Source of the DNA: an uncultured Clostridia bacterium
GTDB taxonomy: Bacteria > Bacillota > Clostridia > Oscillospirales > CAG-382
Assembly: GCA_947627335.1 (NCBI GenBank)
Contig: CANQVQ010000002.1
Location: 1-37,317, forward strand
DNA length: 37,317 nt
Reading direction: 5' to 3'
A program made the translations under genes and the position numbers. Each line of letters begins with the position of its first letter. Positions within the stretch are counted from its first letter, which is position 1. The notes under the pieces are model-generated. The model searched no databases. It was not told the DNA's origin and was given only the letters and a program-made list of their open reading frames with translations. Below, piece by piece: positions 3,381 through 35,558 of this stretch.

Positions 3381-4199
3381 ATGGCAGAATGTACGCACGA
3401 TTGCTCCGCCTGCGGCGAGGAATGCGCCTCCCGGCAGGAAGCGGGCAGTATGCTGGAAAAGCCGCACGAGCAATCCGACATCCGCAAGGTCATCGGCGTG
3501 GTGTCCGGCAAAGGCGGGGTCGGGAAATCCATGGTGACTTCCCTGCTTTCCGTGCTGGCAAACCGCGCAGGGCTGAAAACCTCCATCCTCGACGCGGACG
3601 TCACGGGTCCGTCGATCCCGCGTTCCTTTGGACTGCGCGGACAGGCGACCGCCGACGAGGTCGGCATCTATCCGCTCCTGACGAAAACCGGCATTCGCGT
3701 CATGTCGGTCAACCTGCTGCTGCAGAACGAGACGGACCCGGTCGTCTGGCGCGGTCCGGTCATCGCCGGGTGCGTCAAGCAGTTCTGGACGGACGTGATC
3801 TGGGGACCGACGGACGTGATGTTCATCGATATGCCCCCGGGGACCGGCGACGTGCCGCTGACCGTGTTCCAGTCCGTCCCGCTCGACGGGATCCTGATCG
3901 TCACGTCGCCGCAGGAACTGGTCTCCATGGTCGTCGAAAAGGCGGTCAATATGGCGAAGCTGATGAACATCCCGGTTCTGGGGCTGGTGGAGAACTTTTC
4001 CTACTTCGTCTGCCCCGATTGCGGCGGCAGGCACGAGATCTTCGGCGAAAGCCGCGCCGAGGAAACGGCGAAACGGCTGGGGATTCCGGCGGTCGCACGG
4101 ATGCCGATCGACCCGAAGCTGGCGGCCGCCTGCGACGCGGGCACGGTCGAACTGTTTGAAGGGGATTGGCTCAACGGTCTGTTCGAGACGCTGCTCTGA
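3381..4199 (+). CDS. Mrp/NBP35 family ATP-binding Fe-S cluster carrier protein
   Basis: 272 aa. P-loop GKGGVGKS, CPDCG motif, N-terminal Cys-rich stretch CTHDCSACGEEC. Confidence 0.9.
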   Translation: MAECTHDCSACGEECASRQEAGSMLEKPHEQSDIRKVIGVVSGKGGVGKSMVTSLLSVLANRAGLKTSILDADVTGPSIPRSFGLRGQATADEVGIYPLLTKTGIRVMSVNLLLQNETDPVVWRGPVIAGCVKQFWTDVIWGPTDVMFIDMPPGTGDVPLTVFQSVPLDGILIVTSPQELVSMVVEKAVNMAKLMNIPVLGLVENFSYFVCPDCGGRHEIFGESRAEETAKRLGIPAVARMPIDPKLAAACDAGTVELFEGDWLNGLFETLL

Positions 4200-6702: not shown

Positions 6703-6777
6703 GCTGGTGTGGCTCAATGGCAGAGCAGCTGATTTGTAATCAGCAGGTTGGGGGTTCGACTCCCTTCACCAGCTCCA
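6703..6777 (+). tRNA. tRNA-Thr (anticodon UGU), CCA encoded
   Basis: Hand-folded cloverleaf. Acceptor GCTGGTG/CACCAGC, D stem GCTC/GAGC, anticodon stem GCTGA/TCAGC with loop TTTGTAA, T-loop TTCGACT, 3' TCCA. Confidence 0.9.
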
Positions 6778-6783
6778 AAATAT

Positions 6784-6868
6784 GGGAGAATTCCCGAGTG
6801 GCCAAAGGGGACAGACTGTAAATCTGCTGGCATCGCCTTCGGTGGTTCGAATCCACCTTCTCCCACCA
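6784..6868 (+). tRNA. tRNA-Tyr (anticodon GUA), long variable arm, CCA encoded
   Basis: Acceptor GGGAGAA/TTCTCCC, anticodon loop CTGTAAA, variable arm GGC-ATC-GCC, T arm GGTGG-TTCGAAT-CCACC, 3' ACCA. Confidence 0.9.
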
Positions 6869-6871
6869 AAA

Positions 6872-6901
6872 ATCGGCAAGACATCCGTCTTGCCGATTTT
6901 T
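6872..6901 (+). terminator. intrinsic terminator after the tRNA pair
   Basis: 11-bp perfect stem ATCGGCAAGAC / GTCTTGCCGAT, loop ATCC, then a T5 tract. Confidence 0.85.
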
Positions 6902-6936
6902 CACTCTTCACTTTTCACTCTTCACTCTTCACTCAT
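6902..6936. repeat. five tandem heptamers CACTCTT (variants CACTTTT, CACTCAT)
   Basis: Read directly: cactctt cactttt cactctt cactctt cactcat. Two further TTTTCAC motifs at 6947-6953 and 6963-6969. Confidence 0.8.
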
Positions 6937-7010
6937 AACTTCCCGCTTTTCACTGCGTCGCGTTTTCACCGCAGAAGTCATACGGCAAATCCCTCCGCAC
7001 CTGTTCAAAA

Positions 7011-7041
7011 AAGCACGGGCTTTAGCCCGTGCTTATTTTTT
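7011..7041. terminator. bidirectional intrinsic terminator
   Basis: A6 tract, stem AAGCACGGGC / GCCCGTGCTT, loop TTTA, then ATTTTTT. The stop codon of the XRE-like ORF (7033-7035, minus) lies in the right arm. Confidence 0.75.
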
Positions 7042-7227
7042 GAAATTCCCACAGTACCGCAACGGTTTCGGCGTGTCCGTCAACCCGATTAAATAATCCG
7101 AAGAAAGATCATAGAATTCACAAAGCCGTACCAAATCTTCGATTTTCAGCTCTGCACGTCCGGTCTCTATATGGTTATACCCTTGCTGGGATTTGTTAAG
7201 CAACTTGCCAATTTTGAGTATTGACAT
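7033..7227 (-). CDS. short XRE/HTH_3-like protein, apparently lacking the first helix (possible remnant)
   Basis: 64 aa. KIGKLLNKSQQGYNHIETGRAELKIEDLVRLCEFYDLSSDYLIGLTD aligns with helices 2-5 of XRE/Cro-type HTH domains. An in-frame TAA sits immediately upstream of the ATG. No convincing RBS. Low-GC context. Confidence 0.55.
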   Translation of the reverse strand: MSILKIGKLLNKSQQGYNHIETGRAELKIEDLVRLCEFYDLSSDYLIGLTDTPKPLRYCGNFKK

Positions 7228-26121: not shown

Positions 26122-26161
26122 ACGAAACTCCTTTCCGGTGCGCGAAGAACGCGTTTTTCGG

Positions 26162-26190
26162 TTGACAAATGCGAAAAAATGTGGTATCTT
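26162..26190 (+). promoter_or_regulatory. sigma-A type promoter for the DivIVA-domain gene
   Basis: TTGACA (26162-26167), 17 nt, TATCTT (26185-26190). Confidence 0.55.
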
Positions 26191-28855: not shown

Positions 28856-29761
28856 ATGAACCTGTCTGTCGGTCTGCGCCGGACGTCCCGGCTCCTTTTC
28901 CCGCTTTTTCCGCTTGCGCTGTTCGTCCTTTTGCTCGCGCACCCGTCGCTGTCCGCGTCCCTGACGCTCGGGCGGCTGACGTTTTTCGTCAAGGCGGTGT
29001 TCCCGTCTCTGTTCGGCTCGCTGTGCCTGTCCGGGCTGCTGGTGTCCTCCCCGCCTGCGCGGGCGCTCTACCGCTTTCCGTTCGGCGTGGAGCTGACCGG
29101 GCTTGCGCTCGGCGTGCTGTGCGGGTTCCCGGTCGGCGCACGGACGGCGGTGCAGTTGTACGAGGAAGGGCGTATCTCCAAAGCCCGTGCGGAATTCCTG
29201 TGCGGGTTTTCCAATCTCGCCTCCCTGCCGTTCCTCGTCGGCGTGGTCGGCAGTACGCTGTTCGGGGACGTCGGGTTCGGCGTCCGGCTCGCCGTTCTGC
29301 AGCTGCTCGCCGCCCTGCTCGCGGCGGGCGTGCTGTTCGCCGTCCTCCGCCCGTCCTGCGGCGGGGTGCGCGTCCCGTCGGCGCGGACGGACGTCGGCGT
29401 CGGCGCGGTCGCACGGGCGGTCGCGGGGAGCGCGCACACCATGCTCGAACTCGGCGGAATGCTGGTGTTCTTCGGCGCGTCGGCGGACCTGCTGCTGCAA
29501 ATTTCCGGGCTTTCGCCGGACGGCGTCGGGGCGGCGGTCCTGCAGGGGCTGCTGGAATTTTCCTCCGGGGTCGGTCGGGCGGCGGAGATCGGCGGGAGAA
29601 CCGGCAGACTGCTCGCGGCGGGGACCGTCGGCTGCGCGGGGCTTTGCGTGTGCGCGCAGGTCGCCTCGGTGACGCGTGGGAAGCTGTCCCTGCGCCCCTA
29701 CCTGCTCGGAAAACTGCTGACCGGCGCATTTTTGCTGCTGTTTGCGGCACTTTTCGCTTGA
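28856..29761 (+). CDS. YlbJ-like sporulation integral membrane protein (nucleoside-recognition/gate-domain type)
   Basis: Start at ATG 28856 (RBS GGAGGG 5 nt upstream). Polytopic. GFPVGARTAVQLYEEGRISKARAEFLCGFSNLASLPFLVG resembles the YlbJ signature region. Confidence 0.6.
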   Translation: MNLSVGLRRTSRLLFPLFPLALFVLLLAHPSLSASLTLGRLTFFVKAVFPSLFGSLCLSGLLVSSPPARALYRFPFGVELTGLALGVLCGFPVGARTAVQLYEEGRISKARAEFLCGFSNLASLPFLVGVVGSTLFGDVGFGVRLAVLQLLAALLAAGVLFAVLRPSCGGVRVPSARTDVGVGAVARAVAGSAHTMLELGGMLVFFGASADLLLQISGLSPDGVGAAVLQGLLEFSSGVGRAAEIGGRTGRLLAAGTVGCAGLCVCAQVASVTRGKLSLRPYLLGKLLTGAFLLLFAALFA

Positions 29762-29815
29762 CAAACCCGACGAAAAGGGATATAATGGAAAAAACGGAAA
29801 GGGAGGCGGTCGAAC

Positions 29816-30704: not shown

Positions 30705-31955
30705 ATGAACGCAAAGTACATCTTTCGCGCCGTCCTGCTTTGCCTGCTCGCGGCGATCCTGCTCTGCGCCTGCGCCGGGGATCCCCAGCCTGCGGAGAGC
30801 GGCGAGGAAACCGGCGGTGAAGAAACCGACGGCGAAGCGGTGAGCGGCACGGAGACAAGCGACGAGACCAGCAGCGACGCAACCAGCAGCGAACCGCCGA
30901 GGGAGGCAGCTTACATGGAGTACGAGATCCCGGAGAACTACAACGACGCCTATACCGACACGTTCGCCGAAAACCTCGGCGCGACCGACGGGATCGATTA
31001 CAAGAAGATGCGGGTCGTCTGCAACGAGACGAGCGGCGTCTATTCGATCTATTACGATTACCCCGAGGGCGGTTCCTATATGACGCAGTTGGTCAGAAAG
31101 CGCTGGGGGATGTATATGCTCGGCGCCATCCAGCACACGGACGCGGCGGGCGTCATGGCGCAGATCATCGGCGCGTCTACCGACTTTGAATGGGTCCTGC
31201 GGTGCGGACCGGATACCGGTTCGAGCGGCACCTTCCGCGGCGGAAACCACGGCGACTACACCGCGACCGACTGGACCGCCGAGGATACCACGAAAACCAA
31301 CGACCACTTCATCGACATGACCTTCTACGACGGCAAGACCGGCGAAAAGCTGGAACCGAAGGACGGCGAAACGCTGACCGCCGACGGGCTTCGCGTGGTC
31401 ATCCACAACAACATCTACGCCGGCGAATATACGCAGGACAACGTGATGATCAACGTCGAAAAGCTCTACCTGTTCAACGGAGAGGACGTGTTCGTCCAAT
31501 CCAAGCTGTATATGACGCGGAACGTCTACTTCCAGATGTCCTATACCTGCATGATGCCGATCATGAAGCAGTACGGCAACTGGACGAAATTCTACAACAC
31601 CGACGGCACGGAAAAACTGGTCCAGACCCCGCTGACCGGCACGAGCAACTACGGCAACAACTTCAACGACGGCAACAACGCCTGCAAGGTCGAAATGTGG
31701 GGCGAGCAGGCCCCCGCCTACCACATGACCATGCAGATCTATAACCCCGACGACCAGTTCTACCGCTCGACCGATTACGTCAAGCTCTGGGACATGAACC
31801 CCAGTTCCAACAAGCTCTACTTCTCTTCCTTTGCGCTCGGCACGCCGTCCCTCGTCAAGAAGGGCACCGAGTGGACCTTCGTCAGCAGTTGGAGCTTCTC
31901 CTATCAGCCGGACTTCGTTTCCCCGACCGAGCCGGACGAGCAACTGGGCTTCTGA
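30705..31955 (+). CDS. hypothetical lipoprotein
   Basis: 416 aa. Signal peptide with lipobox LLCACAG, then a Glu/Ser/Thr-rich linker, then a globular Y/N/T-rich domain with no motif I recognise. Confidence 0.7.
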   Translation: MNAKYIFRAVLLCLLAAILLCACAGDPQPAESGEETGGEETDGEAVSGTETSDETSSDATSSEPPREAAYMEYEIPENYNDAYTDTFAENLGATDGIDYKKMRVVCNETSGVYSIYYDYPEGGSYMTQLVRKRWGMYMLGAIQHTDAAGVMAQIIGASTDFEWVLRCGPDTGSSGTFRGGNHGDYTATDWTAEDTTKTNDHFIDMTFYDGKTGEKLEPKDGETLTADGLRVVIHNNIYAGEYTQDNVMINVEKLYLFNGEDVFVQSKLYMTRNVYFQMSYTCMMPIMKQYGNWTKFYNTDGTEKLVQTPLTGTSNYGNNFNDGNNACKVEMWGEQAPAYHMTMQIYNPDDQFYRSTDYVKLWDMNPSSNKLYFSSFALGTPSLVKKGTEWTFVSSWSFSYQPDFVSPTEPDEQLGF

Positions 31956-32006
31956 AACGACGCATACGCCAAACAAAAAGGGCTTGTCGTAGACAAATAA
32001 GAATAC

Positions 32007-32141
32007 TGTTCCGCAGGCGGACACGTGCCGCCGAAGGGGCACCTCAAGAGAAAAACGGCGATGGCGGCGTCAGAAGTGGCGCAAGCCGAGCCGTTTTTCG
32101 ACGAAAGGGGGGTTTTTGGGGGGGGGAAAACACGGAACAAG
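32007..32141 (+). repeat. copy A of a roughly 131-135-nt structured intergenic element
   Basis: Aligns with 35319-35449 in the same orientation. Includes an identical 25-mer GGCGGCGTCAGAAGTGGCGCAAGCC (32063-32087) and a 10-bp stem GAAAAACGGC (32050-32059) / GCCGTTTTTC (32090-32099). Confidence 0.85.
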
Positions 32142-32147
32142 GCGAAG

Positions 32148-32186
32148 CATGACGAAGTCTCATGACGAAGTCCCATGACGAAGTCA
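32148..32186. repeat. 13-bp tandem repeat x3 (CATGACGAAGTCN)
   Basis: catgacgaagtct catgacgaagtcc catgacgaagtca, followed by the related ttacgag. Confidence 0.85.
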
Positions 32187-32254
32187 TTACGAGCCGCCGT
32201 GATCGTGTTTGCCCCCTCAAAACCGAGCCAGCCCGACGTTTTTACGTTTGGGGC

Positions 32255-32283
32255 TTGACAAGCCGTCCCGCAAGGGGTATACT
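32255..32283 (+). promoter_or_regulatory. sigma-A type promoter for the DUF3737-patB pair
   Basis: TTGACA (32255-32260), 17 nt, TATACT (32278-32283). Confidence 0.65.
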
Positions 32284-32318
32284 TTTTTACGGTCATTACG
32301 AAACGGAGTGAATACGCG

Positions 32319-33182
32319 ATGGAAGAGATCAGACAACAGGTGTACGTCGGCGAGCGTCCGCTGTTTCACGGAACCGACCTCGAACTGCACGACACCATCT
32401 TCACCGACGGCGAGTCGCCGCTGAAGGAAAGCCGGGACGTCCGGCTGTACAACTGTATGTTTCAATGGAAATATCCGCTCTGGTACGCGAAAAACATCTA
32501 CGCGAAGGACTGTACCTGGCTGGAAATGGCCCGTTCCGGCGTGTGGTACACGGACAACATCACGCTCGAGGACTGCGTGCTGGACGCCCCGAAGAACTTC
32601 CGACGGTGCCGCGGCGTGACCCTGAAAAACGTCTCGTTTTCGCAGGCGGCGGAGACGCTCTGGACCTGCGAGGACGTTTCGCTCGAACGCGTCACGGCGA
32701 AGGGCGACTACTTCGGCATGAACAGCCATAACCTGCGGATCCAAGATTTCACGCTCTACGGCAACTACGCCTTCGACGGCGCGAGCGACATCGAAGTGCG
32801 GCACGCGAAGATGCTCTCCAAGGACGCGTTCTGGAACACGCAAAACGTCACGGTTTACGACAGCTTCCTTTCCGGCGAATACCTCGGCTGGAACTCAAAA
32901 AACCTGACCTTCGTCAACTGCACCATCGAAAGCCTGCAAGGGCTTTGCTACATTGAAAACCTCACCCTGAAAAACTGCAAACTGCTCAACACCACGCTCT
33001 CCTTTGAATACTCCACCGTCGACGCGGAGATCAAAGGACGGGTGGAAAGCGTGTTCAACCCGTCCGGCGGCGTGATCCGGGCGGACGAGATCGGGGAGCT
33101 GACGATGGACCCGCAGCGCATCGACCCGTCCAAAACCGTCGTCCTCACCGGTCCCGACGCGAAGAAAGGGGACCCGGCATGA
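32319..33182 (+). CDS. DUF3737-like right-handed beta-helix repeat protein
   Basis: 287 aa. Periodic repeats of about 22 residues with N/D-hydrophobic patterns (NVTVYDS, NLTFVNCTI, NLTLKNCKL). Recalled similarity to DUF3737 proteins of Firmicutes. Confidence 0.65.
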   Translation: MEEIRQQVYVGERPLFHGTDLELHDTIFTDGESPLKESRDVRLYNCMFQWKYPLWYAKNIYAKDCTWLEMARSGVWYTDNITLEDCVLDAPKNFRRCRGVTLKNVSFSQAAETLWTCEDVSLERVTAKGDYFGMNSHNLRIQDFTLYGNYAFDGASDIEVRHAKMLSKDAFWNTQNVTVYDSFLSGEYLGWNSKNLTFVNCTIESLQGLCYIENLTLKNCKLLNTTLSFEYSTVDAEIKGRVESVFNPSGGVIRADEIGELTMDPQRIDPSKTVVLTGPDAKKGDPA

Positions 33183-34755: not shown

Positions 34756-34864
34756 GCCTTTCTCCTCCCGTCCGTTTGCTTCAATTTTGTACCTTCTCAA
34801 TGCCAGTATACATGGTTTTATGCAAAAAATAAGACACTTATAAATTAAATTATATCTATTACTG

Positions 34865-34893
34865 TTGACAAATGCAGAAATCTGTTGTATACT
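34865..34893 (+). promoter_or_regulatory. sigma-A type promoter directed toward the 69-aa XRE gene
   Basis: TTGACA (34865-34870), 17 nt, TATACT (34888-34893). A second candidate (TTGACT ... TATACT) lies at about 34922-34952. Confidence 0.6.
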
Positions 34894-35021: not shown

Positions 35022-35231
35022 ATGGCAACGATCGGGGAACGCATCCGGGAGCTGCGGACGGAAAAGCAGGTCACGCAGGAACGGTTGGCGAATTTTCTCG
35101 GCGTCACGCCGCAGGCGGTCAGCAGGTGGGAGCGGGAAGGGGTTTGCCCGAATCTGGAATTGCTTCCGAGGCTGGCGAAGTTTTTCGGCGTCAGCACGGA
35201 CTATCTGCTGGGGTTGATCGAGCGGTCGTGA
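35022..35231 (+). CDS. small XRE family transcriptional regulator (Cro/CI-type HTH only)
   Basis: 69 aa. IGERIRELRTEKQVTQERLANFLGVTPQAVSRWEREG...FFGVSTDYLLG is a canonical HTH_3 domain. Confidence 0.85.
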   Translation: MATIGERIRELRTEKQVTQERLANFLGVTPQAVSRWEREGVCPNLELLPRLAKFFGVSTDYLLGLIERS

Positions 35232-35318
35232 ACCGGCGGGAACGATTTTGACCGTCGGCTTTTTCGTCACGGATGCAGGCGAAACGGACGTTGGTCGGAA
35301 ACAAAAAAATAAAATCAT

Positions 35319-35449
35319 GTTTCGGAGGCGGACATGCGCCGACTCCGAAACACCTCAAGAGAAAACCGGCGAAGGCGGCGTCAGAAGTGGCGCAAGCCAA
35401 GCCGGTTTTCGACCAAAGGGGGGCATTTGGGGGGAAAACGCAGAGCAAG
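35319..35449 (+). repeat. copy B of the roughly 131-135-nt structured intergenic element
   Basis: Aligns with 32007-32141. Identical 25-mer at 35374-35398. Stem GAAAACCGGC (35361-35370) / GCCGGTTTTC (35401-35410). Confidence 0.85.
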
Positions 35450-35529
35450 ACATCGCTGCGACAAAGTCGCCGGCGATGGCGATGCGATTGCGTTTTCCCC
35501 CCAAACTAAAAAAACTTCCGCAAAAGATA

Positions 35530-35558
35530 TTGACAAATCCCATTTCCTGTGCTATACT
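35530..35558 (+). promoter_or_regulatory. sigma-A type promoter for the MarR-acpP-fabK cluster
   Basis: TTGACA (35530-35535), 17 nt, TATACT (35553-35558). Confidence 0.65.

Follow-up and report, generated by a model that had tools for sequence, protein, structure and literature searches.

Does a short intergenic sequence that occurs twice among the genes of one genome represent a decaying duplicate or a structure maintained by selection, and, if it is selected, does it act as RNA or as DNA? The question is raised by two segments of the window, the 37,317-nt stretch of Clostridia DNA analysed here. A first-pass annotation had described them as co-oriented copies of a 131-135-nt element whose 10-bp stem carries a compensatory base-pair change, and had read this pattern as a selected hairpin, leaving a long-looped bidirectional terminator, a small RNA, a REP/MITE-like element and a protein-binding module equally open. 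A single compensatory change alone could not separate RNA-level from DNA-level selection.

Extent and folding of the two window copies

Every sequence detail listed for the two copies was found in both. The 25-mer GGCGGCGTCAGAAGTGGCGCAAGCC occurs exactly twice in the window, at 32063 and 35374, where shuffled sequences lead to an expectation of 0; CACCTCAAGAGAAAA likewise has exactly two occurrences (32040 and 35351), and each copy carries the G-rich tail. The 10-bp stem is formed by GAAAAACGGC/GCCGTTTTTC at 32050-59 and 32090-99 in copy A and by GAAAACCGGC/GCCGGTTTTC at 35361-70 and 35401-10 in copy B, the latter differing from the former by the matched A>C and T>G changes. The reported length of 131-135 nt proved too narrow. 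While the ungapped repeat between the copies measures 129 nt at 82% identity (repeat finder), pairwise alignment, repeat finder and folding all revealed a third long hairpin downstream in both copies, and homology, folding and empty-site joints place the true extents at ~241 nt for copy A (31985-32225) and 226 nt for copy B (35283-35508), almost twice as long. Folding showed the G-rich "tail" to be the left side of this additional hairpin, pairing with a C-run ~60-90 nt downstream. Each window copy thus consists of three hairpins: P1, P2, which carries the identical 25-mer, and the long G-run/C-run hairpin P3. Fold z-scores were -5.2 for copy A and -10.8 for copy B, and both strands fold far better than shuffled sequence.

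Copy A occupies 241 nt of the + strand (31985-32225); an empty allele in a contig of metagenome X5 joins 31984 directly to 32226 through the six-base filler GTCGCA, and a profile match (nhmmer) covers 31996-32222. The unit opens with an A/T-rich 5' leader, TGTCGTAGACAAATAAGAATACT (31985-32007, + strand), in which family alignments and a census of the TACAAT hexamer found the box of that sequence to be degenerate. Hairpin P1, GTTCCGCAGGCGG-ACACGTG-CCGCCGAAGGGGC, follows at 32008-32040 (+ strand; folding, with helices 1-2 covarying over 48 copies). Folding and covariation define P2 at 32050-32099 (+ strand), composed of a 10-bp A-tract/U-tract basal stem, upper stems of 3 bp and 6 bp and a GAAG loop, with the invariant 25-mer located inside it at 32063-32087 (+ strand) by exact-match search. 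The long hairpin P3, UUUUUG9AAAACAC ... GUGUUUGCCCCCUCAAAA, spans 32113-32223 (+ strand; folding, with helices 6-8 in the covariation test). Within the P3 apex lies a 13-nt tandem repeat, CATGACGAAGTCC x2.9, at 32148-32185; five units are present in L049 and one extra unit in an X5 contig, so this tract is a variable-number repeat inside the element.

Copy B fills the whole of a polymorphic 226-nt segment (35283-35508, + strand), whose limits follow from the alleles of L043/L046 compared with those of L047/L045 and from the joint of 35282 to 35509 in X1 and X5; the nhmmer match runs from 35303 to 35505. Its P1, GTTTCGGAGGCGG-ACATGCG-CCGACTCCGAAAC, at 35319-35351 (+ strand; folding, covariation), is a covarying variant other than that of copy A. 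P2 lies at 35361-35410 (+ strand; folding, exact match) and holds the invariant 25-mer at 35374-35398, and P3, at 35426-35505 (+ strand; folding, inverted-repeat search), consists of perfect 17-bp arms, TTTGGGGGGAAAACGCA and TGCGTTTTCCCCCCAAA, around a 46-nt apex. At 35307, copy B lacks four nucleotides (ATAC) that other strains possess (L045 and an X1 contig), a deletion that destroyed its TACAAT box.

The surroundings of the two copies had been described as alike, downstream of a + strand gene and upstream of a consensus promoter, and this is true of both. The gene before copy A (30705-31955, + strand) has no Pfam match, and that before copy B (35022-35231, + strand) encodes an HTH_3 protein. 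Promoters of the form TTGACA-17-TATACT follow on the + strand at 32255-32283, outside the segment missing from the empty allele, and at 35530-35558, where the promoter is present in both alleles; both belong to the host context and not to the repeat. One of the three near-perfect TTGACA-17-TATACT promoters between 31.8 and 35.8 kb is included in a separate 32-nt promoter-like direct-repeat family (TTxxxxTTGACAAAxxC...TAT) at 26156-26187, 29752-29783 and 34859-34890.

Family size, covariation and consensus anatomy

The two window copies are not alone. An exact 22-mer from the core matched 42 stretches in a species-representative genome collection, 41 of which lie on many contigs and on both strands of two rabbit-gut metagenome-assembled genomes (MAGs; Lapin-024 bin47 and Lapin-012 bin103, both "uncultured Clostridia"). 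The other match, in a Burkholderiaceae genome (L030), is a chance match. Within ~330 kb around the copies, an nhmmer profile recovered ~10 further copies without the exact 22-mer, some of them diverged or partial. The family therefore numbers at least 50 copies and is dispersed, non-coding and lineage-specific, in a few rabbit-gut Clostridia. All copies that were placed are intergenic, and their number, dispersal on both strands and restriction to one lineage are what characterizes an interspersed extragenic repeat. In rabbit-gut metagenomes that hold the window organism, contig depth over the element reached 300-400 compared with ~20 in the flanks, an ~18-fold excess in DNA runs.

Searches elsewhere returned nothing related. 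The core 22-mer had 0 matches in viral contigs, a degenerate 21-base core pattern gave two chance matches without homology in JGI metagenomes, and blastn against plasmids and phages found nothing. Rfam 15, searched with the whole window at gathering thresholds, returned only two tRNAs; searched with region 31900-32350 on both strands at E <= 10, it gave only a chance match to PK-BYV (14.5 bits against a gathering score of 50). That the annotation had recognised no family is in line with this result. The two tRNA genes (6703-6774 and 6784-6865, Rfam 70 and 51 bits) are preceded by a consensus-like promoter, and at the syntenic MAG locus L007 a repeat copy and different downstream genes are found at their position. 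L007 was considered as a clean empty site by synteny and rejected, as gene order changes there.

Across 48 aligned copies, 95.4% of cells form standard pairs, and 18 of 46 pairs show double changes, in 155 cells. None of 500 column shuffles matched these figures, partners slid by 1-3 columns gave at most 50 double-change cells, and RNAalifold applied to 21 copies reported 16 covarying pairs. The compensatory change first seen between the two window copies is confirmed as one of the 18 doubly changed pairs (column 105/145), being C-G in 23 copies, A-U in 16 and G-C in 2. Stem positions thus change with compensation family-wide, and the family structure is under selection. These counts bear out the view of a selected hairpin as opposed to a decaying duplicate or coding region, and the REP/MITE-like option is shown to be right by the dispersed copies, their strain-variable presence (below) and the family-wide covariation. 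A chance or local duplication, decaying or of coding origin, could be suspected from the presence of only two copies in the 37-kb window and from an ATG in the P1 loop that opens an Arg-rich + strand frame; more than 50 copies on many contigs of two other genomes, with compensatory changes throughout the family, refute this. The ATG is not conserved, being ACG or GTG in other copies, any frame is disrupted by indels and by the optional cassettes, and no long ORF with the GC3 signature of the genome covers the element. We accordingly give such an origin practically no credence.

Units measure 199-294 nt (median 216) and share one consensus order: a weakly conserved, A/T-rich leader with the consensus AAAAATACAATAAAATATCG, P1, the linker CACCUYAAGA, P2, GAYGAAAGGGGGG, a G-run and P3. 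P1 has three discrete forms, each complementary within itself (GCCCCGUAGGCGG.., GUUUCGGAGGCGG.. and GUCAAAUCUGCGG..). P2 is built from a 10-bp stem, GAAAAYYGGC/GCCRRUUUUC, a 3x2 internal loop, GGC/GCC, a 1x2 loop and GCGUCA/UGGCGC capped by the loop GAAG; a 4-bp helix, CCUY/RGGG, closes the P2 region. The P2 core of ~47 nt is almost invariant, and since upper P2 never varies outside loop positions, it is constrained in sequence, beyond the demands of pairing. P3 follows the pattern UAUUC-G6-AAAACRC, variable apex, GYGUUUG-C6-GAAA and ends in CCCCCCGAAA, where the 3' boundary of the unit is sharp. Optional hairpin cassettes are inserted in P1 (11 copies), after P2 (10 copies) or in the second G-run (7 copies), and one sub-family has a different leader. 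In approximately one third of copies, GTCGAAAA in the leader can pair with TTTTCGAC immediately downstream of P2 (in the window, 35291-35302 with 35405-35416). Matched variants are GTCAAAAA/TTTTTGAC and ATCGAAAA/TTTTCGAT. A helix of this kind would compete with the lower part of the P2 stem. We rejected it as a family-wide long-range helix, given a mean run of 5.6 compared with 4.4 in shuffled sequence and its restriction to that third of copies.

Other repeated hairpins lie near the copies in the MAGs. A second, unrelated hairpin-rich repeat, GGGTACGAGG..GTTGGGGG(T)TG..CAACCCCCAA.CCCCC..CAAAGTCAAC..GTTGACTTTGGGGGG...GCGACCCGATTGT.GCC.GCTCCCGC.GAGCGCTCGC, lies upstream of element copies in L005 (~6800-7050) and L041 (~3550-3800) and also occurs in L029. 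Two small repeated hairpins, the bidirectional-terminator-like CAAGGRACTTTTTNAAAAAGTYCCTTG and GCGTGTCGA-TTT-ATCGACACGC, are found near copies in L006, L007 and L039 and just after the 3' end in L007, L018, L023 and L027. It seems that the two MAG genomes carry a whole set of mobile hairpin modules. In L002, a low-G+C, foreign-looking stretch stands out from a high-G+C background ~700 nt upstream of the copy.

Position at gene ends, alternative alleles and transcription

The copies are placed non-randomly with respect to genes. On the basis of GC3-based gene calls, 21 copies lie between convergent genes, 12 between tandem and 2 between divergent genes (chi-square P = 6e-6 against 1:2:1). For 26 copies, the 3' end of P3 is followed after 1-14 nt by the stop codon of an opposite-strand gene, and these adjoining stops are enriched for TAA (18/26, compared with 44/160 elsewhere; P = 7e-5). 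Most copies are therefore antisense, just past the stop of a convergent gene. Between the upstream gene and the element leader, the terminator of that gene is usually retained. The window copies, arranged as gene, sense element, promoter, gene, represent a minority layout; in two MAG copies of the same layout the -35 box starts at most 6 nt from the element end. Neighbours are ordinary chromosomal and housekeeping genes, among them DUF3737 and aminotransferase genes, and the genes enclosed by inverted copies in the ~330 kb around copies are those for an ABC transporter, a PfkB kinase, spoIIGA-sigE and a PALP enzyme. No transposase or recombinase lies next to any copy inspected in these ~330 kb of the two MAGs, and a partner gene may lie beyond them. 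The spoIIGA-sigE-like gene pair, at 2423-3989 of L033, suggests that the host lineage is probably spore-forming.

Strain comparisons indicate what stands in place of the element at both window sites. The empty allele of site A, AAAAAGGGCTGTCGCAAGCCAGCCCGACGTTTTT, forms a hairpin of -16 kcal/mol and restores a small A5-hairpin-T5 terminator, so copy A sits in the loop of an ordinary terminator; the left arm of this host hairpin, GGGCT, remains at 31980-31984 (+ strand), and its right arm AGCCAGCCC and T-tract GACGTTTTTAC lie at 32226-32245 (+ strand; empty allele, folding). At site B, L047 and L045 carry the element, whereas in L043 and L046, whose aligned flanks match the window at 98.5-99.6% identity, its place is taken by a canonical terminator of 57 nt (12-bp stem, U7), between flanks that are the same in both alleles (GCAGGCGA ... 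AAAAAACTTCC). Both alternative alleles are thus terminator-like hairpins. In X1, other contigs skip two of the three copies in L003.

These substitutions lend indirect support to the proposed bidirectional terminator, as the element replaces or interrupts ordinary terminator hairpins. P2 is a G+C-rich stem with an A-tract and a U-tract on both strands, and in its copy B version folds with ~-32 to -33 kcal/mol on the + strand and -25 kcal/mol on the - strand; when the unit is read in the commoner antisense direction, the U-rich GAUAUUUUAUUGUAUUUUU comes after P1. P2 is atypical as a terminator, since the hairpin spans 50 nt, contains two internal loops and has no more than 4-5 U, and a consensus terminator scan of the window called neither P2 nor P1, both missed because of the internal loops in their stems.

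We consider it fairly probable that the element represents a new mosaic family of interspersed repeats, similar to REP/BIMEs or BOX, and serves as a 3'-end RNA structure or bidirectional terminator. It behaves as REP/BIME, BOX, Correia or ERIC elements do: between strains and species, copies come and go, lose internal segments, decay and exchange modules, and they settle at the 3' ends of genes. Read within the neighbouring mRNA, it would serve as a 3'-end structure and terminator, with the A-tract, stem and U-tract of P2 usable in both directions. A helix 2-8 nt after a stop codon could hinder the terminating ribosome; Liang, Rudd and Deutscher reportedly found in 2015 that E. coli genes are down-regulated when a REP follows their stop codon within 15 nt. 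The invariant core, for its part, is a candidate recognition site for a putative protein.

Transcript data bear on these roles through two metatranscriptomes that hold the organism, both unstranded, contig-level and shallow. RNA contigs of 370-920 nt (unstranded, contig-level) run through element copies, which indicates that the element is co-transcribed with its flanks. Some continue at least 300 nt past P2, which suggests leaky termination or contaminating DNA. In RNA run X13, bins over the element have a depth of 3-4.6 compared with 5-7 in the flanking genes; being below the flanks, unlike the excess in DNA runs, this depth indicates that the element is not an abundant RNA in X13.

The latter observation counts, within the limits of unstranded and shallow contig data, against the idea that the element is a multicopy small-RNA gene, in which TACAAT would be a -10 box, transcription would start a few bases before P1 and the product would act in trans or antisense. 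This RNA would comprise P1, the single-stranded CACCUCAAGAGAAAA and P2 as terminator, or a read-through form with P3 and flank, and would be fully complementary to element copies in the 3' UTRs of convergent genes. Its layout of P1, single strand and P2 with U-tract resembles a typical bacterial sRNA. The TACAAT hexamer lies 12-13 nt before P1 and is near-invariant at positions 1, 2, 5 and 6 in 35 copies, a TAnnAT pattern that matches the known information profile of sigma-70 -10 elements; however, a -35 match of at least 4/6 at 16-18 nt occurs in only 6 of these 35 copies, a TG extension is absent, and the box has been lost from the two window copies. The + strand, the G-rich one of the two, has the more stable fold in 48/48 copies (-103.5 compared with -89.3 kcal/mol), and three G.U pairs are fixed on it. 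By contrast, minority cells, with 65 G.U and 42 A.C, are balanced when counted by column (13 and 11), and wobble pairs therefore permit no call of the folding strand. Copies also decay and delete internally, and no U-tract follows P3. Taken together, we regard a small-RNA gene as unlikely. The TAnnAT box and the three fixed + strand G.U pairs would nevertheless be superfluous for a passive 3'-end structure, and hint at a promoter or a sequence-specific partner.

Sites shared by the two MAG species revealed how individual copies change over time. At one conserved site the copies are 93% identical, compared with 91% in the flank; at the site shared by L001 and L021, which carry different module variants, the copies are only 62% identical against 90% for the flank. 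At a separate site, a copy that is intact in L021 has decayed in L001. L029 and L005 have an identical 3' half and a swapped 5' half, with the crossover in the invariant core, and the full copy of L039 corresponds in L010 to a remnant of 63 nt, in which both ends persist and the interior is deleted. These comparisons indicate that copies are not individually indispensable and that modules re-assort, either because copies recombine through the invariant core or because variants insert repeatedly at hot spots.

Module swapping with a crossover in the core, along with presence/absence polymorphism, would also suit a selfish or protein-binding module that acts at the DNA level only, with hairpins as single-stranded or cruciform substrates for a recombinase, a Y1 (RAYT/IS200-like) transposase or nucleoid proteins. 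The element would then have no RNA role, and its location at gene ends would reflect where insertions are tolerated, convergent regions being classic tolerated sites, as for REP/BIMEs (PMC2817692). A ~47-nt core that stays invariant amid flanking helices that all vary is consistent with sequence-specific binding, and wobble intermediates without strand bias fit a structure formed in DNA. Tolerance alone leaves unexplained the 1-14-nt stop spacing in 26 copies and the TAA excess, as well as the finding that the alternative alleles are terminators; moreover, no transposase or recombinase gene lies beside any inspected copy, and the flanks have no conserved tetranucleotide of the kind IS200/IS605 elements need. 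We judge a role confined to DNA to be quite improbable. More speculative, and in our estimate very improbable, is an active system in which each copy would be transcribed from its TACAAT box into a structured RNA whose P2 core is bound by a putative protein. This RNA would be antisense to the copies lying 2-8 nt past the stops of dozens of convergent genes, or would bear a 3' extension derived from the flank, and the copies would jointly form a genome-wide network that controls mRNA 3' ends or guides insertion at TAA stops.

Relation to known bacterial repeats

The family comes from uncultured gut Clostridia, where interspersed repeats are almost undescribed, and is absent from Rfam. Units of 199-294 nt break metagenome assemblies, with contigs ending at them, and could be mis-called as riboswitches or sRNAs. 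With its stop-codon spacing and TAA excess, its interchangeable alleles and its hairpins re-assorting around an invariant core, the family offers a useful system for studying how repeats choose their sites and substitute for terminators.

Several known elements invite comparison. Intrinsic bidirectional terminators have the A-tract and U-tract stem seen in P2, and the family replaces or interrupts terminators at both window sites; unlike in ordinary terminators, this stem is embedded in a ~220-nt unit and repeated with invariant sequence. Correia elements (CREE/NEMIS, Neisseria), ERIC/IRU (Enterobacteria) and bcr1 (Bacillus cereus group) are small, non-autonomous repeats that form mRNA hairpins and can act as terminators, processing sites or promoters, with target-site duplications of TA for Correia and TTTAT for bcr1. 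They resemble the present family in their small size, strain-variable presence and long hairpins, and differ in having terminal inverted repeats and target-site duplications. No MITE-like terminal inverted repeats were found here, all inverted repeats being internal hairpins, and neither window site has a target-site duplication: at site A, GGGCT-GTCGCA-AGCC is replaced by GGGCT-element-AGCC, and at site B a 57-nt segment is replaced by one of 226 nt.

A hairpin-rich unit of ~200 nt that ends sharply, with neither terminal inverted repeats nor target-site duplication, is also reminiscent of IS200/IS605-derived PATEs and of the omega-RNA scaffolds of TnpB/IscB. Information content is ~0 beyond the leader and beyond the terminal GAAA, where a target or TAM motif was sought; tnpA, tnpB and iscB are absent near the inspected copies, and Rfam gave no omega-RNA or HEARO match. 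We considered the frequent TTAC/TTTA after the 3' end as an IS200/IS605-like target and rejected it, as it is the reverse complement of the TAA stops of convergent genes.

Among Firmicutes, the BOX elements of Streptococcus pneumoniae (boxA-boxB(n)-boxC) are modular 100-300-nt intergenic repeats, non-coding and co-transcribed, whose mobiliser is not established. The present family is likewise modular, highly structured and non-coding with variable internal modules; its sequence and modules are unrelated to those of BOX, and its optional modules are inserted hairpins where BOX has tandem boxB units. To our knowledge, no fixed spacing to stop codons has been reported for BOX elements.

For the REP/BIMEs of Enterobacteria, Pseudomonas and Stenotrophomonas, RAYT tyrosine transposases are the presumed mobilisers (PMC2817692). 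In common with them, the family is high-copy, extragenic and species-specific, consists of mosaics of hairpin modules, is enriched at 3' ends and between convergent genes, and has a link to termination and mRNA 3'-end effects. Many REPs, too, reportedly lie no more than 15 nt from a stop codon (Liang, Rudd and Deutscher 2015). The family differs in having three different hairpins within 199-294 nt, compared with REP palindromes of 20-40 nt, in lacking a GTAG head, and in keeping its modules in one orientation where those of BIMEs alternate; it also has its own ~47-nt core and TACAAT box, no sequence similarity to REPs and no RAYT gene among the genes inspected. Because it lacks the defining features of REP/BIMEs and of MITEs and shares no sequence with anything searched, we assign the family to the structured interspersed repeats of bacteria in general, as a fresh example of this known class and not a new kind of system.
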